A DNA stretch of 64,000 nucleotides from positions 30,201,112 to 30,265,111 of the forward strand of contig OZ316891.1 of assembly GCA_973895155.1 (NCBI GenBank), written 5' to 3'. This stretch comes from Marsupella aquatica (taxonomy: Eukaryota > Plantae > Marchantiophyta). Position 1 is the first letter of the stretch, and every line of letters starts with the position of its first letter. The position numbers were made by a program, and so were the translations under genes. The notes beneath the pieces were generated by a model. The model had not been told where the DNA came from and did not search any database. It was given only the letters and a program-made list of their open reading frames with translations. Shown piece by piece: positions 12,601 through 42,200 of the stretch.

Positions 12601-13555
12601 GATCCAGACATCCACTCCCTTATCCCCTTTGTCCATTGTTTTTATGGACTCGAGGCCCCCCTCTTCTATAGTCATCACACCTCTATAAGAGTATATACCA
12701 CTCTTTCTTTTGGAGAAGGTACACGTCAAGGTGACCCTTTGGGTGGGCCTTTTTTTTCCATTGCCCATTTTACAGCTTTACGGGAAGCCTCCGTGGCCCA
12801 CCCCCAGTGTATCTTCCCCTCCCTTTCAGATGACACCCACATCAATCATTGGTCCACCCAGCGCTGCGGTTACTTCTGCCCTCGCCACCCTTTCCACCCA
12901 TTTGTTGGGCCTCGGTTTATGGGTTCAGCCTGTGAAGAGTCGTGCATGGAGTCCAGTTGGGTTACCCTCTGATCTTGCGCTTCTCCTTGGGTTCTTACGT
13001 CCAGCCAACAGTCTTCGAGTCTTTGGCTCCCCAGTTGGTACCGTCTCCTTTTGCTCATCTTTCATTGCTGATGCTCTATAGGCGGCCTTAGCCCCTACTC
13101 CTATGCTCCCTAAGTTAGTAAATTCTCAGGCAGCATTTGGGTTGTTGTTGAGATGCATCCACCCTCGCGCGTCCTACGGGGCGTCCTATTTGGCTTGGAC
13201 ACATCCCCCTACCGAGGATCTTTATCTACACCTTCAAGCATTTGATGTCTCCATTTGTGAGACTTTGGCCTCTCTTTTAGGGCCAGGTACTTTTCTCTCA
13301 TCTCCGTGGCTCATCGACAACTCAGTCTTCCAATTTCTTAGGGTGGGTTTGGGCTTACTTCCACTGAGCGCCTTGCACCTTTGGCCTTTTTGGGCGCATG
13401 GGCAGCCACCTTCTCATTGTTGGCAGATCGTTTCCTTATTGAGGATTGACCTTTTCTACTTTTGTCTCTCATGGAGGTAGAGGAGGGTTCCCTCCCATTT
13501 CAGGTTCATTTGCGCACAGCGCGGTCATCATTACCAGATCCTGTCCATGTTGCGT

Positions 13556-13800
13556 CTCGGGGGGGTCACTTCCATGGAAGTGGCATATCATGTGCGACGA
13601 AGTATAGGGCCATTTAAATGGTTTTGGCGGAAGACTTATTAAGTCTTCTATGGAAATATAGGGTTGTTTAATTGCAAAATGCATACGTGTCATCACATGA
13701 TTGGTGTCGTACAACTTTATAGAAAGTGACTTAGGGGGGTCATAAATGACCCAAACCGTCGCACGTGATGTATGACCCTTCATATAGTGACCCCCCCGAG
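13556..13800. mobile_element. 245-bp MITE (CTCGGG family, copy 1) nested in the CRE element
   Basis: Perfect 15-bp TIR CTCGGGGGGGTCACT / AGTGACCCCCCCGAG and perfect 8-bp TSD TGTTGCGT (13548-13555 and 13801-13808). Confidence 0.93.
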
Positions 13801-20210: not shown

Positions 20211-20507
20211 CTCGGGGGTTTCACTTCCACAAAAATGGCATATCACGTGCGACGAAGGATAGGGTCATTTTATTGGTTCTAAGGGAAGACTTAAGAATTT
20301 TTGTAGAAGAACAATAGGGTCTTTTAAATTCAATTTTGAGACTTATAAGAATATTAGGGTCTTTTTAATCCAATTTTTAGAATATTCCAAGAATATTCCA
20401 ACTTTATAGGGGTTAAAAAATTAATTTTTTTTCTTACATTTTAGGGGGTCCGAGGCCTAAAAACGTCGCAGGCGATGGGGAGGTCCCCATATAGTGAGAC
20501 CCCCGAG
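20211..20507. mobile_element. 297-bp MITE (CTCGGG family, copy 2, divergent subfamily)
   Basis: TIR CTCGGGGGTTTCACT / AGTGAGACCCCCGAG with perfect 8-bp TSD ACTACATA. The subterminal ggcatatcacgtgcgacgaag is shared with copy 1. Confidence 0.9.
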
Positions 20508-23500
20508 ACTACATAGCACTAAAATAAGCCCCACTATAATGGCTTCCCTCATGGGGTTGCAACTCTTCACGCATCTGAATCTATTGAAGAGGTGTCATTA
20601 GAAAATGTGGTCTAGTTGGACCATGATTTACTGACAATGCCATTATGAGCCTCTGCTCCTTGTTGAGCCAGACTTTGTACTCAAGTCTGCACTAGGCCTC
20701 CTTCCGTTTTTGTTCCTTGTCCAGAGCAATTCTATCTTTGACATTGGGGACCATCACCTTTTGTTGGCTCCTATATATATATCATGAACTCCTTGTTTCT
20801 TTGTTGGCTTGATTTTTTGGTGTTGTCAATGACCCTCTCTCAGTGTGTGGGTGCAATGTGGATCCTTTAGACATAGCCGTGTCTTCTACACCTTGGACTT
20901 TTGATTGTGTGTACTCTACCACCTTCTCCTTCCCAGGTGACTTTCCTTCTTGCTTGCACATGCCCTTGCAAATGAGTAAATCATAATGTAGAACTGGACA
21001 GTCAATGTCCACAAAACAATGGAGGGAAACATTGAAAGAGGCAACCACAACAGATGTGAGCAAGGGCTAGTGATCGACAATAGAATTGGTGAAAAAACTT
21101 GTTCAAGCAACATACATAAGTGAATTATCTCGGAACACACTTGAGTACAAGAAGCCAATGAAGTTTGCTCTGAAGGGACCTATGTTGCAAAAATGATCAA
21201 GGATGGGAAAGAAGTATTGGTTGATGGAATCTATGAGTTCACTTGTCGGTACAATTCACAAGGAATGGAAGGAAGTCGTTGTTGAAAATATCAAGGCATG
21301 TTGTCTTTACAATGAGCACCTGTCAATCCCTACTGGTAATTGTTCCCGCCTTGCTATATGATTTCCATTATACTAACTCTTGTCTCTGTCATACTGGATG
21401 GCATATCAGATGTGATGGTTTCTACCCTTGGATGCCGCTCATCTCAATGTCAACACAATTTGCAATCAAAGTTTCTCACACTCAAACTGAATGCACACAA
21501 AAAAAGTCAGGCCATAAAAAACTAGAATACAAGGTCCCACCACTTTTTATAGTGGTCGTCTTACAAAATATAGTGTCACCTATGCCAAAGGAAATCAGGA
21601 AAGTAAAGCTAGAAGGGGTCATGAATGTTGGGATAATATCTAGACCAAAAGAGACAAAGTCAACACATGTGAACAAACATCCATAAACTCTGACAATGAA
21701 AGTACATGGTTAACCCGTCTGGGCTATGTCTATAGAGTTGGGTTTAGAGTAAGAACTTAACTATTCTTCTCTTTAATAGCCTGAATTCGTTCCCCTTAAG
21801 AGCTATTGAGACCTGAAAGATTGTATTATAATACTTTGAGTACTTTTGAGTAACATACTTAGGTTGATGGAAGGAATTTTGTGATACTTCCATAAAAGTT
21901 ATGACATTTTTACCGTCTATAGTGCAATCAAAAGGGGGTAAATAAACACAACCAAAAGCTGGTGGCATGAAGAACTATTATTAAGCAAGTCATAGTTGAT
22001 AATACACCCTATCACTACATGGTAACTCATGACCAGCGGTAGTACATTAAGAATTATTGGTGTAAAAACTCATCTATAGTGATGCTTAATGATTATCCTC
22101 AAACCAACCATCTTCAAATCTATAAAAGATTCATATAAGGTAGCCGGTGTTAACTTTCTGACCAATGTCAAGGCAAAGGTGGTACTGATCACTCTGAACT
22201 ATCTTATTCCTTTATTCAATCCTTCAGATTGCTCTTTTAGGTCTATGCAATTTATGAGTTCTCGTATGGTGCATCTTCCACTAGTACTTAATAAACCATA
22301 AGTACTTCATAATTAACATGAATCCTTAGACCTTTGCATGACCTCAGGCATGCATTTCCAGTCAGCCTAAAGGTTAACTATGACATTGCCAGTCACTTTA
22401 CACTAATGTCCAAACACAAAGTCATAGATTGTTAAAGTAAAACTCTCAATGAGAAGGAGACTTAGAGTTTTGAAAGATAATTCATGAAAATTGTATTAAG
22501 TCTGAGGGTCAAGGAAGAAACTCTCTCTTATATAGTAGAGAGATCCCCTTGAGAAAATCGAGGAGAAAATACATGAAAAGACATGCCTTTTCATTATGTC
22601 AGAATTAATAAGGTTTACTAGATAAAACTAATTACACTAGATGAAAGGGGAGAGCATAATCTTCATTCCTTTCCTACAAAACATGGAAAATGGTTGGAAC
22701 AAAGGCTAAAAACATATTTCCAGTTCAACCTCTTTTGGAATATCATAATCTGGTTTAACCAGATTTAACGAGGCAGTAGCCGGTTCATTGGCGTAGGTAA
22801 AATGTAGGAGTACAAGAATAATCACAATGATGATTGAGTCTCTCCATCTTCCAATGAATAGATACATCTTTTCATAATATCCTTTCATACTTTGTCAACC
22901 GTTTTGATTGGTTAAGGTCCATTGCCATGGATCATACTCTCTATTGATCCAAAGTCATTCTTGAAAGTCTAATAGTGTGGAAATAACGCTTCAAAATCTT
23001 CATTACATTCTTTGTTTGGAAATCTCATATATCTCTTGGTTGCATCGGTTGGAGTCTCATAATCTTAAGTGGGTCAATTTCATATTTCTTTATATCAATC
23101 TTAACCGTCTCAAAAAGAGCTTTCCAACACTTTACAGATCTTGAATTGGATAAATGGTTTGAGAGTTATGGTCAATTTTCTACCGGGTGGTATATTCAGG
23201 CCGGTTCAGATTTCGGTTCAACCGGTTTCTGGTCTGTCAACTTGTTTTGGTCTCTTGGTTAGACTATGAGTCTATTCTAAATTCATGGTTTACTCTTCAG
23301 GTCTTTGGTATGATGTCATTCTCTCATAAGAATATCTCGGGTTGAAAACATTGGGAAGCCTTCCAACTGGATTAGGGAGGTTGAACTGGCTTCAATGTTT
23401 CCGACTTAAATTTAGAACACAATAATTTCTAGTTAAGGTTCCTTAATTGTCTCAAAGTTGCATTGGAGGCCTCTAAGGTAGGATTATAAACATTTAAACA

Positions 23501-25199
23501 GTAAAAATCTCAAGACTTTCCTTCTTTTCTCTCTTTAAGAAATAAGTATCATCTCACAATGTCCATGACTGTAAGAGAAATTCAGTAATGCAAAATGATT
23601 ACACTCGCCATAACTAACATGCTAGAGCTCCTCCTCTCACTCTAGCCCTCCTATTGTTTCTCCTAAAGAGTGAACATTCAAGTGTGAGCACAAGTTTGTG
23701 TTCCCCTTGGGTACACCTCCTCTCATGGTCTATGGGAACCTGGAATTCAAAAAAGTGCTATCCTAGTCTGTTGAAGTCAAGCTAGTACTATGGAAGTCAA
23801 TAGCTATACTAGAAGGATAGCCTAACTATCGAAAACAAGCCACGGCAAAAGCTATAGGGGGAAGAATCCTACTTGATTCTGTACTTGATCCTCCTCATCA
23901 TAGTACAAGCTTGCAACAAGTAAGTCACTCTGCTTGACCTCCTCAATGTACTTACAAGTACTCTCACTTGTCCAATTCATGGCCATTGTCTTCTTTGTAT
24001 TTCCCTGCCCCAATGTACTTCCCATGTGCCATGCAATGCAAGGAGAGTGTAGTAGCCCTCCCCTTGGTACTCCCATGAAATGAGTACGTTTTATAAAACA
24101 AATTATATACTTGGCACAATTCAATATGTATTTATGTCAAATAGCAAGGGGTTGGGGGCCAAACTACTCTTGGCTAGTAGGGTGGTAGGGTTTAGGGATG
24201 CATATATATGAGGGGACCACCACATATGACAACATCTTTTACATAACTAAGGTCATCTTTGTGTAATGGCATCTTTTGTGCAATGTCATCTTTTACACAT
24301 CAAGAATCTTTTGCACAACATCATATTTTTCGTGAATGACATCTTTTGTGCAAGAAAGTCTTTGACTTAACGATATCTTTTGTGTCGCGAGGTCTTTTAC
24401 CAAATGACATCTTTGATTTAATGACATGTTTTGGACCCAACATATTTTACACAACAGCATCTTCCGTGCAACGCATGAGATTAAACTTGTGTTATACATA
24501 TTAACATGGCAGACATTGAAAATAGCGAGGACCATTATTATTAGATGACAATGTAAGTTGCTTGCATGTTGCAAGCAATCTACATCTATAATATTTGATC
24601 CTGCTCATTTTTGTCCTTCATCTCATTACAATTTTTCTTTTTTGGCGGGAATGAATGACAGCCATTAGATTGTTTGGGTGATTTTTTGTAACCGTTTGAT
24701 TATTAATTAATAATAGGAAGGATGTATGAAATCGTTTCACTATGGTTCCATGGCCAAGGTAACAATAAACACATCATGACATTGCAATAGCAAGAACAGT
24801 TGTAATTGAGAGCATATCCAAAGATCAGGGAGACGGTAGCGAGAACTTGGCATGGAGGAAAAAAAGGGGAGGGCCACATAAAGAAAAAAAGGAACAAAAA
24901 TTGAGGAAGAGGAGAATGAAAAAGGTAGAGAAAAACATAGAAGGGGATAAAGTGACATAATTTTGTATTTTCTTGCCCCTCATTTTTCAAAAACAAATAT
25001 GTATATATCTATGTATTTAGAATATTAATAAATTTAATTTTAATAAAAACTGCATCATTTTTTTGGGTGATCATGCTACGACTTCGTGATGTAATGGCCA
25101 CTCTCACCCATCTTGCATCTCCATGTTCTCAACTTCATCCTCCTCAACAATAACACATTCACAATAATGACAACATTTTGCAACAATGACAAACTGACA

Positions 25200-25730
25200 C
25201 CATCAAACAATGACATTTTTCATGCAACATCTTTTTACGGTGCATAAGGAATGAGTTTGTCTGCATTGTTTTATGTTTCCTTGACAACTCTGCCTCACCC
25301 CCACATTTTTTTCTCCTTTCAACGTATTTTCTTCACCTCAACATCTTCTGTGCAATGCACAGGTGCCGACATTTTTTGTGTTCTTTCCCTCACCCTCGAC
25401 ATCTTTTCTCTCCTCGAGATGTTTTCCTCATCTTTATATCTTTTTCTCACCTTGCCATCTTTTTTCTCCTCAGCATCTTTTTTGCACTTTGACTTCTTTT
25501 CCTCACCTCGACATCTTTTTCTTTCATCGACAACTTTTTTCACACCAACATCTTTTCTTAGCCCCTCAACATCTTTTTCTCTCATCGACAATTTTTTCAC
25601 ACCAACATCTTTTCTTTGCCTCGACATCTTTTCTCTCATTGACACTTTTTTCACACCAACATTTTTTCTTTGCCTCGACAACTTTTTTCACACCAACATC
25701 TTTTATACACCTCAACATCTTTTGTGCAAT
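25200..25730. repeat. Degenerate low-complexity tandem repeat (acatctttt-based), probably TE-internal
   Basis: Many copies of (g/c)acatctttt(tt)c / cacaccaacatc. A similar tract lies at 24230-24470. Confidence 0.6.
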
Positions 25731-25787
25731 GATAAGAAACACCAGGCACCTGGGCTAGTCAATGATAACAACAAAGCTAGATGGTAC

Positions 25788-26034
25788 CTCAGGGGGGGGG
25801 CACTTCCATGGAAGTGGCATATCATGTGCGACGAAGTATAGGGCCATTTAAATGGTTTTGGCGGAAGACTTATTAAGTCTTCTATGGAAATATAGGGTTG
25901 TTTAATTGCAAAATGCATACGTGTCATCACATGATTGGTGTCGTACAACTTTCTAGAAAGTGACTTATGGGGGTCATAAATGACCCAAACCGTCGCACGT
26001 GATGTATGACCGTTCATATAGTGACCCCCCCGAG
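25788..26034. mobile_element. 247-bp MITE (CTCGGG family, copy 3), nearly identical to copy 1
   Basis: Internal sequence is almost identical to 13556-13800. TSD GATGGTAC / GATGATAC (8 bp, 1 mismatch). Confidence 0.9.
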
Positions 26035-26559
26035 GATGATACATAATTATCAAGTACTCTACATGAATCAATACAAATAATTGCTTTCATGTTGGTACTT
26101 GATCAAGCCAACTGCTGTTGCATTCTGCTATTGTGTTGCCGCCTCTTTAGTAACCAGGTCCTCCTAGTCTTCATCGTCTTATTTCTCCTTTGTTTGGCCA
26201 AGAATCCAGATAAATTTGGCATTGAGCATTGACTTGGAGCTCATCCACCTCACCCCAAGGTATCTTCCAAATTGTGCTAAAAATAGGTTAAAGAAGGATG
26301 AGTGGAAGGATGCAATGGGTTGAATGAATTGATACCATAAGCACGGGCAAGGGCACAAAGGTGCACGTATCTGAACGTGCAAGGAGAATGTTCTCCTGGA
26401 ACTCCACATTGCTCCCTTTCAAAACAAGATTCAAAACCACATTGTGTTTCTGGAACTCCACATGTATTTGTTTTTCATTTGCACTTGTTGTGGTAAGTGG
26501 ATCCTCCTCCCACAGAGGGGGTAGCCCCTTTATTTGATGAAGCAATGCCCGCTCTACCA

Positions 26560-27353
26560 CTTGCCTCTTCTGAAGCAAGAATTGCTTTGCTGGAGCGTCC
26601 AGATTGGTGAGGTACTTGAAATAATTAACACCCACAATAGGCATTGTTGCAAAGATCCAATTATTTCAAGTTGACCTCACCAATGAGAGCAGTGACATCT
26701 ACTAAGGCACTTACATTCTTGCTATTCTTCCTCTCAATTTTTTCCAGCTCCTTTGCCTTCTTGTTCCCCAATGGCCTCTCAGTCACCATTTCTGATGTGG
26801 CGGTCTGGTTGGCTAATGTGTAATCCTTCTCATCTGCGCATGTGGAAATTGATGTAAAATTCTACATTTGCCTTTGCTTCCGTTCCAGTTTGTCCAAGAG
26901 TTTCTCATTCAATTTGGGCAGCAACCTGCCACTTAGGGGAGTCCTTAATAATCTTTCGAGCTTCATCAAATTGAAATTGAACCCCCTTCTTTGTTGTTCA
27001 TTGATATGGAACTTTGGCTTTCTGATTTTGCTCATCCTCGTTTGTGCCACTCTCATTTTAACTCCAGAATGGGCGACATGGCACAGACTAGAGTTTAACT
27101 TTGCACAGTCGTGATTGATGTTGCCCCACTTTCATCCGAGGACCTCACTGACCTTGGGACTTTCTTCCCAACACCTAGGTTCTTCCTTTGGAATTTTGCC
27201 ATAGCCTTGGTAAAATGTTGCTTGATTTTGCCCCAATAAACATCAGACTCCTGTTGAGCTCAACACAAGAGCATAAGCTGCAAGCAAGCCAGAACCTGAC
27301 AATCTGTTCTATCTAAATATTACTAAAATTTGATGGCTTCATTGCTCTGCCAT
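26560..27353 (-). pseudogene. Decayed PIF/Harbinger-type Myb/SANT-like (NAM-associated) ORF
   Basis: Minus-strand fragments QESDVYWGKIKQHF, KWGNINHDCAKL and ERPLGNKKAKELEK resemble the W..I...F / W..I..DC.KF / RP.G.KKAK motifs of Harbinger ORF1 proteins. Multiple stops and frameshifts. Confidence 0.6.
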
Positions 27354-27540
27354 TGCCCGTGCGGTCAACTGGTGTGTTGTGTGCACACAACAAAATTGAG
27401 GTTGACAGATTGGATGTTGGGCGAGAGAGGTGCATGCAAGCAATGAGGAAACTTTGAAGGACATGAGTGATTGATCAGAAACAAGAGACAGCTTGAGGGG
27501 GCATTCATTCTGTATAAAGTGTAGAGCTCCTAGTGTCGTC

Positions 27541-27849
27541 CATGGGGACTTCACTTCTTTTCGTCCGACCCATTGTGCGTGAAGAAGTTAGGGTTTTTTA
27601 AAATTTAATTGGGTGGAAGAATTTAAAATTTTTGCTGAAGAAAAATAGAAGTATATTTCAATCCAATTTTAAGAATTATAAAAACTATATGGGGTCTTGA
27701 ATTCCAAATTTGAAAATACTCCTAGAATATTCCATAAAGTTGGGGGTTAAAAATAGTAAAAATATACTTAAGTTTTTAAGTTTTAGGGTGTTTATTACTT
27801 GAAAACTTTGTGCATGATATGGGACCTCCCTTAGAGTGAGGTCCACAAG
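27541..27849. mobile_element. 309-bp MITE, older relative of the CTCGGG family (copy 4)
   Basis: Imperfect TIR CATGGGGACTTCACT / AGTGAGGTCCACAAG and TSD GTGTCGTC / GTGTGGTC. The interior shares motifs with copy 2 (aatccaatttt.agaat, agaatattcca...ggggttaaaaa). Confidence 0.72.
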
Positions 27850-28488
27850 GTGTGGTCTGATCAAGATCTGCCCATAATCTCCTCTGGTCAAAACATTATG
27901 TTGGCCAAACTTTAGTGTTGACTTCCCTATTGTGAAAACCCCACTCCCAAAATGTCCGTTCGTGTTCCAGTAAGGGCATTCAGCCTGACTTTTTGGGTTT
28001 TGCTTACTAGTTCGGTGAACAAAATATCACAATCACTATATTCATTAAAACTGTACTTTTAAAAGTCCATAAGATGAACCCTAAAGTTATTTTTTTCAGG
28101 CCAAATTTCTATTAAAGCATTCCCAAAAGCTAATTTTTTTCAGCCCAAATATACACTTTTGAACGCCCAAAATTTTGTTTTTTTCACCCAAATGTTTAAT
28201 AATAACTTAAATCAGATATTCTAATTAATTTAAAAATTAGAGTAAATTTAATTTAGTCCAAAAATCAGAGGCCAATACCACTCAGACCATCTATAAATTA
28301 AAAAATATAGATGGTCATAAATCAAGGGTCAAAATGAGATTGACCCACTATATAATTATTAAATTGTCCAGTCCAGTGAGAGAGCCTCACACTAAGCATA
28401 TCCTAATTATTTACTTTATCCTACATGTTCAAAACATATCCTTTGACATAATATGAATGTACAATTCAGGGTAGGCACTAGAGCAACC

Positions 28489-31400
28489 CTATCTCCTAAT
28501 GATCAAGACAAAACTCATTTGAACAAGAAAGTCTGCTTCCTGATTTATCATAGCGGATGTCACGGTTGCAAGTATCTCTCGCATGGTGGTTCTTAAACTT
28601 ATTGGTGAGATCCCTATAGTAGTTCTGAGAACTTTCCAAATAAAATGCCTTCTATTTTGTGTATGAGGACCAGAATAGTTGTCTCCAAGTATTACGTTTG
28701 CAGTTTCTTCGATCTCATCCGTGGTCCACGTCTCTAGTGGTGGGTAATGCTGCACCTCGTTTTTTCCGTCCCAAGGAATCTCTTCAGGAGTCACATCCAA
28801 GATGGTTCCAAACTCCTTATGGATACAACGACAATCTCCCCACTTCTGTTCCAAAAGAGCATAGATGGCAGCATGATCCTCCTTGCTTGTTAATAAATTG
28901 AAAACATACCACTTTGGATTGTTGACAGTGATATAATGTTGAACACAGTAAGCCTTTCTCAATTTGCAAAGATACGGCCATAATATCTCGGGCAAAAAAG
29001 TGTCATTTGAAGCTGTGTGAGTAAATAGATTTGGAAACAATCCATTCACGTCATAATTCAAAAATGCCTTCAATGGAGAATCATCAATAAGAACTGTATT
29101 AGAAGCATCATATTTTTCTGGAAAATGGTCCCAAATGGTTTGCAAATTCTTCAGAAGTAAATTGGCCTTCCCATCTGTTATATCTGGCCTTTGGATGCAA
29201 CTATCAAAGGTATCTTCTTGAGTAAAGACAAACTTGAACTTCTGTCGCTCCTCCTCAGTGAAAATCAACTCCATTAAGTCCATTGTTTTTGGCCTCCTTG
29301 CACAAGTCCAAATTGCGATGTCAAAAACCATGAAAGCTGCATATAGAAATTCGTGGAGGTATGGGCGCTCCACATACATGAAATTAAACCCTCCACGTCT
29401 CCCCTAGTGCACACCACGTAAACTTGTCTGATTTCGCCATGGTCCTGAGCTTCTGGTCTTAATGCAATCCCAACAAATCTTGTTAAGGTCAAGAACCAAG
29501 AGCTTTCGCCGGATCGGAGAGTGTAGTATTGGAGTGAATTCTGGAAACATTAAAATAAGCCCTTAGTCAATGCGACTCAAAGTTTAAACAATTACTACGG
29601 AGGAAAACTCTCAAAATTTGAAATCAAACAAACTTTGTTATAGCATTTGAAGTAGAGAGGAACAACCCTGGGGCGACCCTCCTAGAAAAACATTAATTAC
29701 ATTCAGATGCCATTTTTTAGATCCAAAGTATACCTGGGTCAAACCCTTCCTCCACAGCAACGCTTTCCGAGGGAATGCCAACAAAATCCTTTGAGGAAGG
29801 AGATTCTACGACGGAACTTTGGTCTGTAAAAAAGTATATTATTACAAAGATAAAGCTTAGATTGTCATTAAAATACCAAGAACCAAAGAAAGGGCTAATA
29901 ATTTCCAATGCTAAAATGCCCAAATTCAACTATTGTTTGATCACCTAGAACACTCTGTATCTCAGAATTGATACCACTGGGAAGTTGCTCTTCAAAGGAT
30001 GGGGGTGCAAAAACTGGGCTCAATCTCAAGTTCAGTTTTTTGTAATCTGATTTTGCCATTATCTTTGGAGCATCGTCTAGTGATTCTATCATTCCAACCT
30101 TTGGTCCATTTCTCCATATAAAATGAGTTGCAGGATGGACTGTTTTCATATATCCAGTTCTGCCGATCTCGGATCCAGAATTTTGTGAAAATGATAATAC
30201 TACGGGGCTTCCTGTAGAAGCACTTGTAAAAACCAATTTAGTCTCTGATGAGCAATATAGAGGAGACAGGGGAGGATTTGAAGCACCTACCTTCTCTTCT
30301 TCATTTGCAGCGGTCTTAGGTACTTGACGATCATCCTCCTTTGCAAGCGCAATGTCTGATATTTCTCCCAGTTCTACTGCGTCAATATTGCCTAGACCAT
30401 CTGCGGTTGCCTTCCAATGTGCTTCCGATGTGGACGATGTAAGATCTGGGTCCGATTGGTGCATCCAATTCTCTACACCGGCAAAGGGATTTCTTGGTGG
30501 GTCGCCCTCAGGTCGACCCACAACATCGGCCAACCCCACACCAAAGTAGGGAATACCTACCACTTGTGTTCCACGTTCATCCAAATTTCGGGTGACCTTG
30601 TCGTCTGTGTCATGACCCAATACTCCTTCCTCAATATCATCTTCGCCCTGGTCTACGCCTTCTTTGGCACCAACATGCTCGGAAACCCCATCGCGGGCTC
30701 TACCAAATTTGGAACCGCCCATCCGGTCACTCATTATGGAAGGAACTTTCTCGTAGAGAACCCTTCCATATGCCTGAGTGAAATCATATTCATCCTCAGT
30801 GTCTGAATACGCAAAGCATTCTCTGAAACACAACAATGACACCTTCATAACCTGTCCTCCCGAGAAAAAGTCAAGTATAGTCTCCCCTTCAGCCAAAAAA
30901 AATTCAATAATACTCTGCAGCATACATTTTGGCTTAGCGTGAATATTCACAAAGCCACCTCTACTTCCCACCATCTCAAACATGGGAGCCTTTTGTAAGA
31001 AATCTCCAATGTGAAATGCTGAAGTTGACTCAGTCTCTGTCTCCTTACTTGTCTTACTCTTATTCTTATCTCGCTTTTCCGTCTTGTCTTCCACTTGGAA
31101 ATCAGGGTCGATCGCCGAATTGTAAGAAAATTGGCAATTAAATCCAGGCCTGAACACTTACTTCCAATCAAATTTCTCCTCAGTGGTGATTCCTGCAAAG
31201 ATTATCTCTTCCATACCACAACTGAAAAGTAAGCCCTCTGGAACTGGTGTATCACTCCGTCGATAGCTCCCGTAGTCAACGTGGATGTCCATTCCCTTTT
31301 CATGTTGCAATTTCCTAAGGGCACTCAAAATGTTTGCAGCAAGTGGCCCCGGATGCACAGTCATGACAACAACAATTGTTGGATTTCTTGGAAGATCCAC

Positions 31401-34400
31401 AATGTATTGCAGTAATGCAATAATTTCAGCATCGGTCCAAACATGTTGTCGGAGCCTACTAAAGTCAACAATGGCAAGAGGACACAAGGCGAAGGCTCTT
31501 GTAGCATTTCCGGCACGGTCGTCTTCATCAAATTCTCACTAAGAAATGTCAAGAAAGGCTCCGTGCGAGAACGACCAATCCCACCAAATTCTTTAAAATA
31601 CAACCCATCTAGTCTGACCATCAGACTTTGTGGGAAACTCTCCTTGACCACATTCTTCTTCAATGAATTGTTGAGGTAAACCTCACCCGCTGCTCTCCTC
31701 AATTTTGTCATCTCAAGCTCAGATTTCAAGGAAGGCAACAATATCACCAGAGACTCCCAAGATGTGCCAACAGGAAACTTATCACGATACTTTTCCACAA
31801 AATAGCCAATAATGACTGTTCTCAATTTGGACATTATCTTGATTGTAAGGGCCAAGTCTCCCATTGCGACAAGCTCTGATTTGTTGGTGATATCCTTCTT
31901 CAGCAAGACACGCTCCTCTTCAACGTCCTTCAAGATCTCAATTATCTATTTGCTACTAATCTCTCCTTCAAAGCATCGAAAGGTACCAGGAGTGATCAAT
32001 TTTGGGGGTCTTGGCCCTCCATACCCACCAGCCCCATCTTGGAGCTTCCCACTCAACCATTTTGCACACACGTTCTGCCATAATTCAAAGAGCTCATCTT
32101 CGGCAAAAAGTAACCAATAAATGCTCTTTAGGCTTGACTTCCCCATTGTAACCTTTGCCTGGGCAAACCAATCCTGCATATCCAATGGACTTGATATTAG
32201 TTTCAGGGTACAATGCATATGTTAGAAAATTTATACCTATGTTTGAAACAGGCTAAGCCGCCTCGCCCCAAGGGCGTGGCGAACCTCTACATCTAACTGC
32301 AATTGACTGAAACGGAACTAGGGAATTCTTCTTAGAGAGACTAGTCTAGGTTGCCTCGCCCTGAGGGCGAGGCAAACATTTGCTTTAATCTTCTAACCAA
32401 GGAAAACAAGAAAAGGCAGCCTCGCCCTTGGGGCAAGGCAAACCTCTACCATTGACAATCTTTAAACAAAGCGGATCAAGAATAGTTTGCGTTGCTCCAA
32501 CATGTACCTAATAGTTTTTCCTGTCTGTATTTTGATTGGTCCCAATCCCTGGACGCGGCGGTTTCCCGCACTCCTCAAATTGCCTTCGTGCATGAACAAT
32601 AGTCTCTAAAAAACAAGACTTAAATTGCATAGTATCATTGACAGCATTCGATAAACTTGAATGCTCAACCAAAATTGTCTTCGGAGTGAGGTCAGATAGG
32701 ATCCTTGCTTTCCTATACTTTAGTTTGTTGGCAAGATCTGTCAGCTTGGCGTCAGTCTCGGCCCACCCTTGGATCCATTGGGCAGCTCTTCCAGAATGCT
32801 GGCCACTGATGGCAAGGAATTGGATCTCATGCTTCTTCACACCAATCAAAAACTCTTTCCTATCCTGAGGTGTGTTGTCATAATGAAGCAACTGTTTAGT
32901 GCTCTCGCGATACGAAATCAAATCAGCAACTTGTGGTTCCTATCCAGGGTTTTTCATCATAGACTTTGATATCTCCATTGCATGCGAAAGATTGAACATT
33001 CGATATACAAAAACGGCCGATGGCGGATTAATACTTTTTACAAGAATATCAAAAACTTCGCGGATGCCACAAGTATAATACTGCTCAATATTACGCAAAA
33101 CCTCTTGGCCTTTGAGCACATCATCTTCTTTGGGTCCTTCTGTCGGACACATATCATCCTCTGGATGCAAGACAAAGTTTGAAGTCGACCCTGACATTGG
33201 TTTTGATTTCGCAACCTTTGCCTTCTTTGTCTGCTTTTTTTGGGGGCCCTCATCATCTTCATTTTTTTTAGCCATCTTCTTACGACGTGAACTCCCAGAT
33301 TGTTTCTCTTGTTGAACAACCGGCTCTTGAAGCTTTCGTTTCTTCTCTGTCTTTGATTGCGCACTTCTTTCCACTATCTTCTTTCTCTCCTTTGCCTTAT
33401 GCTTTGCTTCTTTTTTCTTCATCTCTGAAATCCACGTCCGGCAAGCGGCCTCTTGAAACTCTGGACAAAAAATGAAACTCTTGTCGATTGCTTGCTCGTA
33501 TGAAAAATGTGCCTTCTCAATCATCCTTTGAACTATCCAAGTAGACGGAGGGTCCACACTGTCCGCATTGTCATGCATGTGCTTCTTTACGTAGAGAAAT
33601 CCAAACACTAGGTCAACTCCACTTATTTGAGAACGCATCTTCTCAAACATCTGATCAATTGTTACTCCATCTGGGAAGAATCCCATATCAGCTACGCTTA
33701 TCTCCAATCGAGCCATCCACTCAACATTCAGTAAAGTCGAGTAGAGTTTTATTGGCACCAGAAGTCTCATCCACTGAGATTTCTCATTGGACTCAACAAT
33801 AATCGTTGCATTGCGGTTGTTGTCCGTGTTCACAAGGACGACTGGACCTAGAGTAACAATTGTCTTGCGGTCATTCAATTGACTCGTGAGGCCCTTGAAA
33901 CAAATCAAGAGACTGCCTTCCGCCGACACCCCAACTTCTAGTGCCCATCTAAATCCTGGAGTATCTTGGTCAGGGAAAACAAAGTCCTTGATATCCTCAT
34001 CCATAATATTTAACTCCGGCTTCTCAAGATTTTTTCCTGGTAAGAAACATTGAAAACAAAATGGTCAGCATCATATTTTTAACATTGACATGTGGAAAAC
34101 TTTCAAGGTGCCTCACCCTTGGGGCGAGGCGACAAATAGAAGATTGCAAAATCTTCTTTGCTCCTAGTGCAATTAGCCCTGCCACCTCATCCAAGCAATC
34201 AAACATTATTTAGGAATGCAGACGACATCGCCTCGCCCCAAGGGCGAGGCAACTTCTGGAAAGTAGACAACATTTAGGAATGCAGAGGACATCGCCTTGC
34301 CCCAAGGGCGAGGCAACTTCTGGGAAAGCAGACAACATTTAGGAATGTAGAGGACATCACCTCGCCCCAAGGGCGAGGCAACTTCTGGGAATGCAGACAA

Positions 34401-34907
34401 CATTTAGGAATGCAGATAACATCGCCTCGCCCCAAGGGCGAGGCAACTTCTGGGAATGCAGACTACATTTTAGGAATGCAGACAATATCGCCTCGCCCCA
34501 AGAGCGAGGCAAAAAATAGAATATAGCTTAAGATCCTTTATTAATGTAAGATACAAGGTCCAATACACCTTCGGAGCAACAAGAAATCTAGAATGAAGTA
34601 GACATCGCCTCGACCTTGGGGCGAGGCGACTACAAAGGAATATAGAAATTTTCCTAATAAGAAGTTTGAAATCCAAATTAAAGTAAAGTTGCCTTGCCCT
34701 TAGGGCGAGGCAAGAAGTTGAAGCAGGTGGTGCCTTACGTGGAAAAGTTAACTGGGCTTTCTTTGACGCCTCCAATGCATTGTTAACCAATTTTTGGACA
34801 TCCGGGTCTTCAGGGTCATATTCATACAGAGAGTTATAATTGAAGTTCAATGACTCTTGAGAACTGGCGGAGGTGGTGGAAGCTTCAGAACTGGAGGAAG
34901 TAGACAT
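28489..34907 (-). pseudogene. Large spliced TE-type gene: K-rich region, ParB-like domain, N4/N6 DNA-methyltransferase-like domain, acidic linker and FCP1/NIF HAD phosphatase-like domain; disrupted
   Basis: Exon 1 (34907-34739) splices in frame to 34036. Further GT-AG introns lie at 32507-32174, ~29.9k-29.82k and ~29733-29541. Motifs: FLAISGQHSGRAA (~32.8k); HAKPKCMLQSIIEFFLAEGETILDFFSGG (~30.85-30.95k); RKLLVLDLN (~29.5k), RPYLHEFL, IAIWT, KNLQTIW and NTVLIDDSPLKA. In-frame stops at 32940, 32508 and 31158 plus several frameshifts. Confidence 0.7.
34209..34510. repeat. Five tandem ~65-bp units, each with the 21-bp palindrome GCCTCGCCC-CAA-GGGCGAGGC
   Basis: Palindrome starts at 34230, 34294, 34359, 34424 and 34490, inside intron 1 of the minus-strand gene. 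Confidence 0.92.
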
Positions 34908-36071
34908 TGTAAGGGGCGAGTGAGATTTAAGATGACACGTGGCAGCAATGGAGAATGCCACAGGCTGCAAGAGGGCACTAACAGGCAAACAATGATCGAG
35001 GGAGCGACCCAAAAGGGAAGTGAGCAAGGCGGAAATAAAAGCCTTAGAGCGAGGCGGAAAAAAAATCCCAAGAGCGAGGCAAAAACAAAAGCCCTAGAGC
35101 GAGGCAAGAGGGAGGCAAGGAGTGAGGAGACGAGAGAGGAGGCAAGAGGGAGGCAAGGAAATGAGGCCTCAAGCGCAAGGCCTGCCTGCCTATACCCCCT
35201 ACGAGCGAGGAGTCCGAGGAGGCAAGGATCCGAGAGGGTACGGAGGCATCAATGCGCGCCAATGATGGAGACCCTCCTCGCTGCATGTGATCGTGAGTCA
35301 CCGATGGTGTGACCACTCACGACCACTCGCGACTCACCTACCAATTTTAAACTTCCGAGCTGTCAGCGATGTGTGCTCGCAACTCACCTATCACTCGTGA
35401 GTGATTGGCTGACACCCTATCCGATGTCTACTTGTGTGCTGGGTGCGTGCCTCATCCACCCGTGCCTGATCTATTGGTGTCCACTCGTGTGCTGGGTAAT
35501 GTGTGGGCTTTTTGCCTCTCAAACTGAGTATAGACCTCCCACAATCCATGTTTTGGTTCATTGTCATTTAGACAGTGATTGGTACGATCACTGACTCTCC
35601 TCTGTCCGAGTGCCTTGTTTAGGTCCGCATGGTTGAATGCAAGATTTAGTAAGGGCACTGGTGAGCACTGTGGTGCTAAGAGTTATAATGCTGGCATCCA
35701 AGGTACCCATTTAGCTTGTACAAGGGTGGGCAGAGATATATTGCGGAGCAGGTTAGTGATTTTATTTATTTATCTTAGAAGTACTAGCTCAACTACATCT
35801 AATTCAATACCTTTAAGCCAAACCTAGATTAAGATTTACACATTAGGTTCTAGATCATATATTTTACTCATTTCTAGACCTTTATCCACAGTCTAGCATG
35901 TGTAGAACTTACTGTACCCCTTTATGTGATTACTAACATAGTTTCTAGAAGTGGGTCGGAATTATTTCGTGCCGACCTGACTATGTCATCTTAACTAGCA
36001 TTTTAAACTGGTATATAAAAGCATAAGCAAGATAGTTTCACAAATAGTTTTGACATAATTTCAACTTAATA

Positions 36072-36400
36072 GTTGGAGTAGGGTCGAAATAATTCCGACC
36101 CAACTTGTCAATGTTTAGTCAATTAAATCATTTTAAGACATATTGTTGGAGGAGGGTCGAAATAATTCCGACCCGACTTGTAAATGTTTAGTCAATTCAA
36201 TCATTTTAAGACATATTGTTGGAGGAGGGTTGAAATAATTCCGACCCAACTTGTAAATGTTTAGTCAATTCAATCATTCAAGACATATTGTTGGAGGAGG
36301 GTCGAAATAATTCCGACCTGACTTGTAAATGTTTAGTCAATTCAATCATTTCAAGACATAATGTTGGAGGAGGGTCGAAATAATTCCGACCCGACTTGAA
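36072..36400. repeat. Five tandem ~73-bp units, each with the 21-bp palindrome GGGTCGAAAT-A-ATTCCGACCC
   Basis: Palindrome starts at 36081, 36154, 36227, 36299 and 36372. An inverted degenerate copy lies at ~35953. Confidence 0.92.
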
Positions 36401-36524
36401 TGTATTTAGGGTTTTGAGTGATTTTACAATATTTTTTGGAGGAGAGTCCAGATTTTGAAACATGATTGTAACATGGGGAACTTAACAATTTCTAACTTTA
36501 TTTGAATACAGATAGTCCGCTATC

Positions 36525-37730
36525 ATGATCAATTTTACACGAGGGGATGAAGTGTCATTGGTGATCGATGAATTTGAAACGGCAATTGGGATAGTTCAAA
36601 AGGTTGACCCCCAGGATACTATACAGAACATTTGTCTAGGGGATAATCGAATTGGGGTATTGATCAAAAAGTGTTTTGACGGATCACGTCAACTTCCATT
36701 TCCTTCGCCCAAATTTTCTACATTGGCTGAGGCAATTGACTCCTGCGTGATTTGGGATTGTGCATTGGCATACTTGAGGTCATCAACTCAGCGCCGAAGA
36801 ATCAATGTCGATGATTTCTCTTTGGCTGGAGATGCTGGAAATGATAAATCCAAAATTGATGTAAGGGTTGAAGAGGACGTGTTCAAGGAAGGAGATGAAG
36901 TTCAGATGTTCATTTTTGATCAGTTGGTTGCAAATGGAGTCGTTTTCAAGACAAATCCGATGGATATTTGTCATACTGAAACACTCGGGGTTGGTCGCAT
37001 CAGTATAAGAATATCTGATATTGTTAAGGGAAATCAAAAATTGCCATACTCGCACCCTGGAGCTGATACAATAGAAGAGGCCTTGCATACCTGGGTAATC
37101 TGGGATGTTGCGCATGTTTCTAGAAAGGGCACTCTACGAGATTTTGGCGTGTTTGGTAGTTCAAATATTTTCAATGATCTTCCATTAAAAGATTTTACAC
37201 TACGTTCCAACTGGATGGCGGAGGAGGTTGATTTGTATGACGCTTCTCGTTGTCGGAAGGTTGCAACAGGTGTTATCACGGTCCCATTTGAAACAGGTGC
37301 CGTTGACAATGAACTACTTGGTGCAGATCATGTTGGTGTTGTTGTTGTTAATATCAATGAACCCGGATTATTTCCAAATATCCGTGTTGGTAGCCCTGGC
37401 TTGGTGAGGTGGGAAATCAAATCCCTTCTATTGATTTCGTCTCAAAGGTTTCTTGGGGATCACTTCTTGCTTATCCTGTTCAGATCGAAGAGTCAAAGAT
37501 GGAAGCTTTTCTGAGATGAAGACATGGGATGTTTTTCAATTTGGATGGTGGTACTCACATAAGCTGGGCTTGCACAAGTAATAGTGCGTAGGCTCGGTCT
37601 TAGTCTGCAATTATAATGCTCCTTTGTTGTGGACCAATGGATAAGAAGCGCTATCGAGCATACAATTCTTAGTTGCGGAAGTTTTACAGAATTAGTTTGG
37701 AGACTTTGATAGAATTCTTTGGCCACCAAG
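36525..37730 (+). pseudogene. TE-associated protein with three tandem Tnp1/En-Spm-like (DUF8039-type) domains; 3' end frameshifted/truncated
   Basis: Three repeats of (GDEV)..VA.G.V...P......LG...I.V.I......LP.......TL.EA....V.WD in ORF 36525-37514. Coding-like sequence continues with stops (KKRYRAYNS*LRKF). An acceptor (aatacag) lies just upstream of the ATG. Confidence 0.65.
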
Positions 37731-39295
37731 GTAATCACAGGAGTCCAAAAGAGCATTAACTTTCTGAGTCGAACAGCTGCAATCGCACCAGGCCCGGGTG
37801 CACTTGTCTAGAGGATTGATTGTTGTTTCATACTGGGTTGTTTCCTACTTGCCTCTTATTGTACTGCATCTTCTATGTACTACAATTTGAGACTTATTTC
37901 CCCTTTTCAAAAAGCTCTGCACAAAACTATAATGTTCAGTTATCAAATCAAAGCAAAGCAACACAAAGTTTAAAAAGCTCTGGACCAACAGGTTTACTCG
38001 TGTCTGAGGTGTGTGTGTCCAGTGAACATGATGGAAACATTTTGACATTCTTAGCTTTTCAAAAATTTAGCTAATGTCACAAAACAAAACCTATTTTGAT
38101 AGCACAATGTTGTACACTTTTTGGCAGTCCACCACCCCAGCGAGATAGTAGCTTCTAATAATATCAGCTTTTATGTAAAAGTAAATTAGAGATTAAATTT
38201 CCACATTAGAAGCCCAAGAGTAGTCTTTTTTGGAGACAGACTGAAGAAATGGCCCTTCAGTTTACCTTTTCGCTCACTAGTATCTCTATAATTGTAACTA
38301 CATGCCTATAGGGTCACGACTAGCAGTTTCACTCCGGCAATTGGCAGGGTTTCTAGTATCTCCAGTCCTTTTGGCTGAAAAATTCATATCTTTGTTCAAA
38401 GAAAAACAAATTTACACACATTCCTTGGATCAACAAGGGGTCCACGGACTAATTTGAGGAGGGCATTATGTGAAGTATCACAAAAATAGGAAAGATAAAA
38501 CCCAAATATAGTGTTACCAAATAAAATAACATAATAACTTATCAAAATCACAAGATTTGTTTAAACTTCTTTCATGCCTTTGGCCAATTGCAGGCCCTTT
38601 TGCTTGGATTTTCTATTCAGAGATTCACTTTTTTGTTGTTTGTTACCCAAAAATCACTCAAGTTTTTAAGCACATTAATGTGCTAGTTATTGGCATTATG
38701 AGAATAATGCACTCAAAATTTGGGCTGCCACCCTCATTTTTCAGGGCATTATATCTCATAATGCCCCTCTAACCAGCACATTATCCTATTCAAAATGGTC
38801 TTGTCTTGTTTGTCTACAACCATGCTGACATGGCATGCTCCCGTGCCAGGATTTTGCAAAGGACCCTTAGGGGGAGTCAGTATATAGTGACATGCAAATA
38901 CAAAAACAAACTTTTATAATATTGTCAATTATAACTTCTTTAGTGAGAAGTAATTCAAAACTAAACCAAAATTATAAACATCTTTAATGATAATTAAAAA
39001 CTAACTAGCATAAAAGCTAAACAGACGAGTGCAGTGGTCGAGCAAGCGATGAAAGAAGAATCGATCCAGCGATTTGTGCGATTTGTGTACAGGAGTAGTA
39101 CAGTGGCGGTCATCGAGCCAGAAAGCCAGAAGCGGATGAGACGCTGAAGTGGGTCTTACTGCCGATCCGATTTAATCAGATGCAGCATGCTCGATCGAGT
39201 GATTTCATTGACAGATCTTGTGACTGCTCCCTCGTCGTCTTCATGCTCGTCTTTGTTTAATGAGGAATTGATGAGATCCAATCCATGCCAAGAAA

Positions 39296-42200
39296 ATGGC
39301 ATCGGCAGCATCTGGGCGAAATGCGCATCACCACATCATTGCAAATTCGAGTAGGAGGCGCCTCCGAGCTGTGGTGGCATCAGCTTCATCGCTGTTCTCC
39401 TCCAATTGCTCAGTTGTAGGATTGGAGGAGCAGCAGCACTATTGGCAGGGGAAGAAGAAGAATTCAGGGGCTGCTGAACAAGTATGGAGCCCATTTGCTG
39501 GACCTTCTGGTGACGATAACTCGAAATGTTGTACCAAACCTGCCCCTTGTTTCGACTACTACTGCTACTCCTACTCAGCTGTGGCCACTGGCAGCAGCGA
39601 AACGAGGAGGGCACAAAGACCTCCTTTGTGGGCCCGAATCCCATCATGGATCTCTGTCTCGATCATGGATGAAATGGGTAATCCACCCTCCAGCAACTCA
39701 CCCCACAGAAATGCAACCCGCAGTGGAATTCGACTTGCATCGAGCTTGGGACCACAGCAATGCATCCTTTCGTCGAGAAGGTTTGGTTTGCAGCAGCAGG
39801 CTGAAACTGAGATTTGTCAAGGCAGGTTGCATGTAAAGGAAATTTCGGGAGTTCGAATTTGGCAGAGCCCTAGAGAATTGCAGACGGGACATTCCTGCCA
39901 TGGAGGAGGAGGAGGTGATGACAAATCTGGGAAGATCGCGCATGATGGGAGAAATGCACCTCCCAGACTAAGGCAGTTTCATGGGTCGAGCCTTTTCTCT
40001 TCCAACTGGGGATCAAGGCAGTGCATGCAGTCCTCAAGATCGTTTGCGTTGCAGCAGGAGCATGAGTTTGTGACTGATCACGGTAAACCGGGTGTGGGGG
40101 AATCATCCCGAGTTCGGATTTGGCACAACCCGAGACGATTTCACATGGGGCATGCACACAATCATCATGGAGGAGGAGAGCATGATAAATCTGGGAAGGC
40201 CAGCGAACGTGTCCTAGGGTGGGGATTGTGGAGTGACATAGGTCTTGCGATTGGCAAGGGTGGTGCTGGTTACGTGTCTGCAAGCACGGCATTGATTGCT
40301 GATGCTGCCCACTCAGTTTCAGACATTGTGAGTATCTCCTCCGCGTGTGAAAGAAGTAACTCTGCATGACAGTCATACAAAAATTGTGATTTGACAGTAG
40401 TAGCAATTCGACACTTGATTTGCACTTGCCTCCTGAATTCAAGCGACAACTTTGTACCTTGTGCAGGCTTTGAGTGGTGTGGCACTCTGGACCTCCAAGG
40501 TGGCTCATGCTCCAAAAGACAAGCAACATCCCTATGGTAAGTTCTGTTGAAAAGGTTAGAAGTTTGACATCCTTTCAGATTCTTGCAACTTAATATCTCT
40601 TGTTGCAGTAAGGAGACATTTTACGTGGTCTAGTGGAGGATAACGCAATGTTAGTCGTTCATCCGACCAGTTGTTGCGCACAACCTTTTCTTTGCCCCTA
40701 TTGTGTTGTGTGGCTGATCGAAGGGCCTTTTGCTGTATGGATGCCCAGGTCATGGAAAATTTGAATCAATTGGTGCACTTGGGATATCTGGTATGCTTCT
40801 ACTGACTGGTGGCGGAATAGCATGGCATTCCTTGGAATCGCTGCAGGTATGAACCTCTCACCTTCTGTGTTATAAGCACCGCTTCGGTGTCGTGTAGCAC
40901 GCAAGACTAAAGATTGAAATCCATTGATGATCCCCGAAATGTCGGTACTGTTGATTGGACTATAGATTCTGCTAGTACGAGTTAGGCGTTACCTACGAAA
41001 CCTGCTATCGCGTTAAAGAGGGACTACTTAGTCAATTGAGTGTTTGAATAGTTTAGTGGCCTACCGCTGTGCATCCATCTGCTTCTCATTCGGTTGTCAT
41101 ATAATAAATCCAGTTGCAGTTTATGTGTTTGTGATGATATCATGGGAAGCTTTAAGGTATCTGCGGTGATTCCCAGATTCCTGATCGATTCCTTCAGGTA
41201 CTGCACTGTGTCAGACATTGTGTAACATTTCAGAATTATGTTTCTCAAGGTACACGTGACATTAAGAAAGCCACCTGGGTGGAATTCGTCCCTTTTTGCA
41301 ACAGCCATTTCTTCCAATGATGTCTGAGTGGGTGCAAACGACAACTGGTCACTCCCATGATCTTGGACAAGGAGGACATCATCATGGTATTGACTTGCAG
41401 CATCCATATGTGGCTCTCACTGCAGCAGTTGCCTCCATTGGGGTGAAAGAAATGTCTGCCACAATTCCTCTTAGACAACTAGAAATACCTGGAATTATGT
41501 TTGGCTCTTAGCATTATCTTTCCATTCTTTTTGTGAGGTTGAACTACATTCAGGTTGCTGTGCGTTTCTTGATCCCTATTGTGTTCTTTAATTTGAAGAG
41601 CTTTTCTAGCTCTACTTTCTGTCTCTATTTTTTGGCTTATGGTGACGAGGAGGATTTTAAAAATGGAACTCAGAAACTCATATATTTTGGCCGCTTACGA
41701 CCGTAGGTTTTCTTGATGTGTTGCTGGAGATGAATGCAACCTCGCAGGTTTTTTTTTCCCAGTCAGATTAATTGATGTGATACGTGCAGATTGTATCAGC
41801 GAACTAGAGCAATAGGGGAAGCGCAGCACAGTGAGCTACTCAAAGCAAGTGCATGGCACCATCGTAGTGATGCTATATCCTCAATTGTTGCTTTACTTGG
41901 CATTGGTAACTTCTCTCACTCCCCTCACTTGTAATCTTTTAGTCTTGGTGAGTATCAATGGCAAAACTCCGCCCGAAGTTGAAGAGCTAAACAGATTCTT
42001 TGCCATTCACCTAATTAAAGCAATTCCAAAGCGTCATCAACGTGACTACATTTAAGGGAAGGTTCACCAAATTGGTCTTTGATCACTTTCGGTTCATCTT
42101 TCAGGGGGCGCAATATTGGGCATGCCCCTATTAGACCCGGTAGCTGGGTTTGTTGTGTCTGGCATGATCATGAAGGCAGGGTTTGAAACTGGATATCAGA

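Follow-up and report, generated by a model that had tools for sequence, protein, structure and literature searches.

A spliced ParB-like and methyltransferase-like gene beside a NIF/HAD frame in a repeated element of the liverwort Marsupella aquatica

We analysed a 64,000-nucleotide stretch of the liverwort Marsupella aquatica (positions 30,201,112 to 30,265,111 of contig OZ316891.1, assembly GCA_973895155.1; hereafter the window), and we focused on a gene on its minus strand at 34907-28489, which lies in a repeated, transposon-like element. A preliminary description of this locus had read it as a single fusion of a ParB-like domain, an N4/N6 DNA-methyltransferase-like domain and an FCP1-phosphatase-like domain. 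We find that the gene is real and spliced, and that it probably gives two products rather than one triple fusion: a ParB-like and methyltransferase-like protein of about 1325 residues, and a NIF/FCP1-family HAD protein. In the modelled structure of a relative, the methyltransferase-like domain has the fold of the beta-class amino-methyltransferases (PF01555 class), and the catalytic motif of that class was found in none of the family proteins. The chances seem to us evenly balanced that the main product is a non-catalytic self-recognition factor, binding palindromes in its own introns and either shielding the element from silencing or aiding its transposition in trans.

Gene structure and predicted products

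The gene consists of the following parts.

34739-34907, minus strand: predicted exon 1, on the basis of sequence and frame, with the ATG at 34907, a Ser-rich leader and a phase-1 donor
34037-34738, minus strand: predicted intron 1, with eight palindrome copies (34110-34711), partly as a 65-bp tandem array
32508-34036, minus strand: exon 2, with the N-terminal domain, a Lys-rich linker and the ParB/DUF3723-like domain; stops at 32942 and 32510
33430-34036, minus strand: conserved N-terminal domain (about 200 residues), shared with relatives P0001 and P0002
About 33100-32520, minus strand: ParB/DUF3723-like domain, in exon 2
32174-32507, minus strand: intron 2, with three palindrome copies (32260-32439); its junction is spanned by P0003, P0044 and P0046
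29895-32173, minus strand: exon 3, with a helical linker, the methyltransferase-like domain, an acidic low-complexity stretch and, at the C-terminus, a small domain; interrupted by two stops (31948, 31160) and a frameshift (31485)
About 31560-30750, minus strand: beta-class amino-methyltransferase-like domain, in exon 3
30293-29910, minus strand: small C-terminal domain with the pattern HY.W..GP.KG ... E[YF]GS; the protein ends EFGHFSIGNY-stop
29734-29823, minus strand: possible exon of 90 bp, proposed from sequence only, flanked by phase-1 GT-AG introns 29944-29824 and 29733-29541
28489-29550, minus strand: NIF/FCP1-family HAD frame of 353 residues with its own in-frame ATG at 29550, motif I DLN and a stop at 29405

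The four introns (34738-34037, 32507-32174, 29944-29824 and 29733-29541) are all GT-AG and all keep the frame. Splicing all four yields 1690 codons including the stop, and splicing the first two alone yields 1326 codons that end with the stop at 29895-29897. Exon 1 and both downstream introns share phase 1, so several spliced forms would be possible, and the 90-bp exon is required for any NIF product that is fused or spliced to the leader. We consider the intron 2 junction confirmed, because an annotated protein of Calypogeia fissa (P0003) reads across it into exon 3; two other proteins end at this intron. Exon 1 is covered by no homologue. An intron beginning at 31161 was considered and rejected, as relatives and high-depth contigs read straight through this site. 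The motif blocks that had been quoted were all found on the minus strand, namely SGQHS (32807-32793), AIVDFSR (31475-31455), HAKPK (30941-30927), DFFSGG (30872-30855), LDLN (29493-29482) and IDDSP (29088-29074). The proposed spliced join of about 1700 codons thus holds as a reading frame, with four in-frame introns and one confirmed junction, whereas the triple fusion that it was taken to encode was not established.

The relatives of the gene support its first two domains as parts of one protein. Exon 2 is 44-47% identical to P0001 and P0002 and 56% identical to C. fissa P0003, and the 143-codon frame at 32511-32939 has three homologues among 160 candidates. The frame at 29898-31157 retrieved 38 representatives at E <= 0.001 from among 1.84 billion proteins; one of these, the aspartyl-protease-like P0040, was discarded as a false match. 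Where an organism name was available (30 relatives checked), the relatives came from the liverworts C. fissa (three) and Riccia sorocarpa (two). Two relatives, P0044 (1009 residues) and P0046 (1219 residues), have four parts, namely ParB-like, linker, methylase-like and C-terminal domain, in a single open frame, and in a tblastn comparison the first three of these parts were colinear with 33287-30750 of the window. The fusion of ParB-like and methylase-like parts, as first described, is therefore present as one open frame in these relatives.

We then considered where the protein ends. Among the 58 family proteins, 27 (17 clusters) terminate 2-21 residues past the motif E[YFH]G[ST]; P0048 was left out of this count as a different site. 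In the window EFGH stands at 29927-29916, with the stop at 29895-29897 after it; the high-depth contig described below has this stop too, and immediately ahead of the motif it shows the consensus Asp again (family IDEFG). Splicing from a donor at 29944 would remove E[YF]GS, with which the C-terminal domain ends. That domain has no family match, and the model is partly confident there. None of the 59 compared proteins reaches into 28481-29900, and none of 894 candidates of 533-2000 residues matched the NIF frame at E 1e-10, which is weak evidence against a fused relative.

The NIF/FCP1 assignment of the downstream frame was borne out, as PF03031 matches with E 1.6e-12 and 47.8 bits against a cut-off of 21.8. 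TIGR02245 (HAD-IIID) matches with E 6.8e-13, below its own cut-off, and the closest solved relative is UBLCP1 (3shq, E 3.8e-8). HAD motif I has the form DxDx(T/V). Here it reads DLNKI at 29490 and is without the second Asp. UBLCP1 is described as a proteasome phosphatase (PMC5451543). Frameshifts within the NIF frame were rejected, and a single stop at 29405 was found. Taken together, we conclude that the NIF/HAD frame is most likely a separate product of the element, made from its own ATG or by alternative splicing, and that a spliced ParB-methylase-NIF fusion is possible on the predicted splice sites.

The methyltransferase-like and ParB-like domains

An AlphaFold2 model of relative P0044, built from 15 sequences, had high confidence for the linker and for the greater part of residues 460-745, with the predicted local distance difference test (pLDDT) mostly 80-94, and it shows a permuted Rossmann fold with the beta-class motif order. 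In a structure search against 48,161 chains the top matches were all beta-class amino-methyltransferases (11 entries, Z-score 13.3-16.9, 186-229 residues). Residues 463-752 matched CcrM with Z 16.9 and a root-mean-square deviation (rmsd) of 3.9 over 218 aligned residues, followed by MboIIA (Z 15.7), RsrI (15.1), PvuII (15.1) and the rotifer N4CMT (14.9). The MT-A70 family came next at Z 8-10 and unrelated folds at no more than 5.4, and Foldseek gave the identical order. At the sequence level, PF01555 matched the window frame with E 0.0079, below its cut-off, which 6 of 29 scanned hits did reach, and a family profile matched M.RsrI with E 1.3e-5 over the motif X-I block (VNP..K..DFFSGG). The amino-methyltransferase claim is thus backed by family profile, structure comparison and Foldseek, and we conclude that the domain, as modelled, is of the beta-class fold.

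Motif I, DFFSGG or a close variant of it, is found in 27 of 29 pattern rows (the other two rows are false matches) and is one residue shorter than in M.RsrI; conservation of motif X (VNP..K), of motif I and of the Asp of motif IV extends across proteins that are 18-36% identical to P0004. The catalytic pattern [DSNH]PP[YFW] occurs in none of the 58 family proteins, so that the absence of DPPY or SPPY, first noted in this copy, is a property of the family. In 12 of the 58 (10 clusters) the pattern D[FL]xR is found at the end of predicted strand 492-496, the expected motif IV strand, with the register taken from the beta-class strand order. The prolines and the aromatic residue of this motif are reported to position the target amine (PMC4738411). 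Because these residues are gone, standard catalysis is unlikely, and the conserved Asp and S-adenosylmethionine (SAM) block may be compatible with binding or with an altered chemistry.

Relatives of the methylase-like part were absent from the viral contigs searched (33 stretches). Among eight metagenome loci, L001 is a fragment of the family; L002 and L006 were set aside as type III Mod-like genes with DPPY, for which the profile comparison had aligned only the motif X-I block. Residues 455-745 of P0044 also resembled ESM Atlas clusters of 81-109 members at 0.93-0.94, one of them automatically named 'Trimethylguanosine synthase (Fragment)'; the domain may belong to a larger family that has gone unannotated.

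The ParB-like part probably has a ParB/Srx fold, and here the preliminary description found weak support: language-model look-alikes and sub-threshold profile matches favour it, whereas both models of this part had a pLDDT below 50. The leading ESM Atlas look-alikes were fungal clusters and DUF3723 (0.95), and a DndB profile matched P0003 with E 0.031. The presence of SGQHS in all six proteins that cover the site also speaks for the fold. A model of P0003 from four sequences had a mean pLDDT of 38.6, and its fold search gave helix matches alone (best Z 5.3). A phage protein named ParB/Sulfiredoxin was the fourth viral fold match, with an rmsd of 25.9, a match probably driven by the methylase part. 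Two alignments (A6 and A7) were kept out of the folding because their ParB-like fragments were misaligned. Searches with the ParB-like part turned up no relative among prokaryote genomes (24 stretches), viral contigs (72) or plasmids, and phages gave a single record at E 4. The N-terminal domain before it has neither a Pfam nor a PDB match, and a helical linker of about 200 residues joins the ParB-like and methylase-like parts.

The repeated element, its palindromes and its mutated copy

The gene shares its surroundings with the following features.

28034-38513, no strand assigned: repeated element, with CACTA at 28034, TAGTG ending at 38513 and a 9-bp inverted match; candidate boundaries
35022-35105, no strand assigned: 25-bp tandem array ahead of the ATG that contains three half-sites (GCGAGGC) of the palindrome found in the introns
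35953-36392, no strand assigned: second 9+3+9 palindrome family, GGGTCGRAA-N3-TTYCGACCC, in six copies, mostly in a 73-bp tandem array (0.07 expected)
36516-37514, plus strand: TnpA-like frame of 332 codons, head-to-head with the gene; PF03017 (TNP1/EN/SPM) E 0.012, 15.8 bits against a cut-off of 21

That the gene lies in a repeated element is supported by contig depth. In sequencing run X1 the depth across 28034-38513 was about 360-990 per bin, compared with about 19-20 for the flanking contigs at 26002-27805 and 38737-41000, and the TnpA-like frame lies in the same high-depth block. Loose contig ends at 28031/28032 in run X5 coincide with the CACTA at 28034. CACTA is frequent locally, at about twice per kb, the inverted match spans 9 bp, and no significant terminal inverted repeat was found. 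We tentatively assign the block to a non-autonomous EnSpm/CACTA-like element of about 10.5 kb. Rfam gave no match within 27000-39500.

The 21-bp palindrome GCCTCGCCC-N3-GGGCGAGGC occurs in introns 1 and 2 and nowhere else in the window: all 11 matches are intronic, with 0.01 expected, and the palindrome is kept in differing flanks across the two introns. These are candidate parS-like sites within the gene of the ParB-like protein. The second palindrome family precedes the head-to-head TnpA-like frame.

The window copy is a pseudogene, as had been described, with a different count of lesions: we found five in-frame stops (32942, 32510, 31948, 31160 and 29405) and one frameshift (31485), where three stops and a few frameshifts had been claimed. 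High-depth contigs read through every lesion of the window copy, those of run X1 being without the stops at 32942, 32510, 31948 and 31160 and without the frameshift, and the changes at 32510, 31948, 29405 and 31485 were present in all four runs (three studies, three organism codes). A collapsed high-depth contig represents the majority base and not any single intact copy. The X1 contig depth over the gene stretch, about 430-550 against about 19-20 for contigs on both flanks, suggests 20-27 similar copies, bearing in mind that contig depth is not copy number and that X1 may be the source of the window itself. Contigs of the same run at a depth of about 309 match only conserved gene patches in 30212-33930, which suggests a second, diverged high-copy subfamily.

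Between 29800 and 33000 there were 33 differences from the high-depth contigs, and 24 of them were C-to-T in the window copy, a direction that takes the majority base as ancestral. They fell in CG (11), CHG (9) and CHH (4) contexts, so that 20 of the 24 were at CG or CHG, corresponding to 6.3% of CG, 4.2% of CHG and 0.4% of CHH sites (p = 2e-8). In plants, methylation at CG and CHG is expected to leave an excess of C-to-T changes at these sites. The pattern matches host CG/CHG methylation pressure, and we count it in support of the explanation preferred below.

Other features of the window lie outside this element. Just to its right, at flank-level depth, is the start of a cation-efflux host gene (39275-40369, plus strand; PF01545, E 4.6e-5). 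Broken reverse-transcriptase-like frames at 12406-13480 and 15844-16494 (plus strand; RVT_1 E 4.5e-4 on 12406-12969) are probably a decayed retroelement. A second high-depth repeated block spans 22000-26400, contains a 19/37/56-bp pyrimidine-rich tandem array (25382-25723) and yielded no protein family; 25781-26034 is 96% identical to 13547-13800. At 59300-62846, possibly another element, a 362-codon frame that no Pfam family matches is accompanied by a coding repeat of 57 bp, rich in Glu/Gln (60577-60795), and by a 200-bp tandem array (61103-62146). A further tandem array, with units of about 350-385 bp, lies at 51770-53306.

Candidate function and comparison with known systems

We favour an explanation in which the gene is a mutated copy of an accessory gene on a likely non-autonomous land-plant DNA transposon. 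The N-terminal half would load on the 21-bp palindromes in the way that ParB loads on parS. The methylase domain, once disarmed, would grip DNA or SAM, or would scaffold a partner in the fashion of METTL14, itself a scaffold for its partner. Occupancy would then shield the element from host CG/CHG methylation or help a transposase supplied in trans, and the NIF/HAD protein would be a second element product. Binding, protection and expression are all steps that we infer.

We weighed this explanation against three others. Were the protein an active, non-canonical amino-methyltransferase, which we think unlikely, D[FL]xR would stand in for DPPY, SAM would bind at DFFSGG, and the enzyme, once loaded on the palindromes, would write N4-methylcytosine (4mC) or N6-methyladenine (6mA) on its own element. 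The complete and mostly confident modelled fold would suit such an enzyme, as would the motif IV Asp, motif X and motif I conserved at low identity; active 4mC enzymes are also reported in Marchantia and rotifers, and self-marking has been proposed for algal ParB-methylase accessory proteins. Against this, no covering member has the two prolines and the aromatic residue, motif I is shortened, and those same active eukaryotic enzymes retain SPPY. It seems to us quite improbable that the 1689-residue ParB-methylase-NIF fusion is the main product, a protein that would bind DNA and, coupled to this, dephosphorylate RNA polymerase II or some other protein of chromatin. The frames can be connected through two canonical phase-1 introns and the open 90-bp exon, the high-depth contig has the same first donor and acceptor as the window, as little as 345 bp lies between the stop and the NIF ATG, and En/Spm, whose one transcript is spliced alternatively, offers a precedent. 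The third intron would, however, remove a C-terminal end conserved in 17 clusters, the stop is kept, neither the 894 candidates (weak evidence) nor the 59 compared proteins gave a fused relative, and the NIF frame has DLN in motif I and UBLCP1 as its best relative. The evidence thus does not support the triple fusion as main product, nor does it support the proposed dephosphorylation of the RNA polymerase II C-terminal domain, given the best matches to UBLCP1 and HAD-IIID and the DLN of motif I.

Equally improbable, in our judgement, is that the family is passive cargo or serves the host from within a repeat, with the palindromes having nothing to do with the ParB-like domain and being either binding sites of the TnpA-like protein or by-products of tandem duplication in the introns. 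This reading draws on the TnpA-like frame found here, as TnpA of En/Spm binds repeated short motifs; several palindromes also sit in the 65-bp tandem array, and ParB Box II is without its arginine. The palindrome is nevertheless retained in differing flanks in two introns and as upstream half-sites, the frame stays open and conserved in the family even between deeply diverged members, and the palindrome beside the TnpA-like gene is another one.

Several observations count against the self-recognition factor that we prefer. The ParB-like part had neither a Pfam ParB_N nor an NCBIfam match, a profile search of the PDB gave no match to it, and no helix-turn-helix was identified; the ESM Atlas ParB_N cluster ranked last of 30 (0.91, 122 of 256 features). 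SGQHS is present in all six covering proteins and in the window (register inferred), and in all six a Ser stands in place of the Box II arginine, so that the arginine of GxxR is missing. The palindromes could equally serve the TnpA-like protein, and the strict conservation of DFFSGG and the motif IV Asp would fit a retained chemistry. Most homologues are gene-caller frames on contigs, whose stops could fall in introns. No transposase family, and so no DDE transposase, was found among 18 scanned flanking frames (18762-37807), and there is no target-site duplication (AAT precedes 28034, whereas TTA follows 38513 and ACA follows 38889), although the ends may be misplaced. Finally, the window copy is heavily C-to-T mutated, and any protection would therefore be incomplete. 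The Box II arginine is described as needed for nucleotide binding, its loss abolishing binding (PMC12704722). A nucleotide-gated clamp in the ParB-like domain is thus doubtful, since this arginine is replaced by Ser.

A broader proposal, which we consider unlikely as a whole, is that early land plants host transposon-borne pseudo-enzymes derived from phage ParB-methylase fusions. These would recognise element-specific parS-like palindromes in their own introns as a sequence-specific anti-silencing system, each element gene having its own 9+3+9 palindrome and the NIF module being spliced in on demand, and the ParB-like part would perhaps be the plant counterpart of Starship DUF3723.

A close architecture is that of the giant transposon Sola1-1_Ec32 of Ectocarpus, in which the gene of a 1104-residue accessory protein with ParB-like and N4/N6 methyltransferase domains is transcribed in the opposite direction to the transposase gene; similar proteins are cited there in green and red algae, and accessory proteins that join ParB to an amino-methylase are put forward as what may be a new class, binding and modifying the transposon that encodes them (PMC12477816). 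The likeness is in domains, in a length of more than 1000 residues and in the proposed action on the own element, and the comparison is of architecture and context, not of sequence. Unlike that brown algal Sola element, the locus here is in a land plant, has a weak EnSpm TnpA-like neighbour and no DDE transposase among the frames scanned, has lost PPY throughout its family and has a NIF/HAD frame adjacent. In the red alga Bostrychia, which offers a precedent for the explanation that we favour, the Plavaka (EnSpm/CACTA) genes PAG2 and PAG3 have PF01555 and ParB-like accessory domains beside inverted-repeat arrays, for which self-binding is proposed (bioRxiv 10.1101/2025.02.11.637652). They share with our locus the EnSpm lineage, both domains and the repeat arrays as proposed binding sites, whereas their methylase is fused to SET and their ParB to a 2-oxoglutarate (2OG) oxygenase in separate genes; here the two parts are fused to each other and the repeats are intronic.

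Phage fusions of ParB_N and N6_N4_Mtase (PF02195 and PF01555) are common (PMC12704722) and are identical to ours in domain order and methylase class; our gene differs in being spliced and eukaryotic, with a helical linker, additional terminal domains, GQHS in place of GxxR and D[FL]xR in place of DPPY. Two further eukaryotic proteins share the beta-class fold and have no ParB-like domain, namely MpDN4MT1 of Marchantia and N4CMT of bdelloid rotifers; both come from host genes, keep SPPY intact and have shown 4mC activity (bioRxiv 10.1101/2021.02.12.428880, PMC8885841). UBLCP1/HAD-IIID resembles the NIF frame in family and in solved structure, whereas here no ubiquitin-like domain is seen, motif I is DLN and the frame sits in a repeated element.

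DUF3723 (PF12520) is conserved cargo of the fungal Starship elements (bioRxiv 10.1101/2021.12.13.472469, 10.1101/2025.02.28.640899). It is the best named language-model look-alike of the ParB-like part and, like it, an accessory gene of mobile elements, giant ones in the fungal case, whereas by sequence the ParB-like part has no Pfam DUF3723 match; no link between DUF3723 and ParB was found in print. The locus thus gives a lead on the DUF3723 of Starships. It also offers a candidate binding site and a young multi-copy family, so that self-binding could be tested with one protein and one 21-bp oligonucleotide.

In the literature consulted we found no description of a land-plant family, of a family-wide D[FL]xR, of intronic palindromes or of a NIF neighbour, and plant members may be listed in supplements (PMC12477816, PMC4738411 and the Bostrychia preprint) or in subscription papers. 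Taken together, the architecture and the self-binding hypothesis were already known from algal transposons, and what appears to be new here is the land-plant, apparently non-catalytic variant: the locus extends the ParB-methylase architecture to land plants, in a diverged family that as a whole keeps the fold and has lost the catalytic motif.

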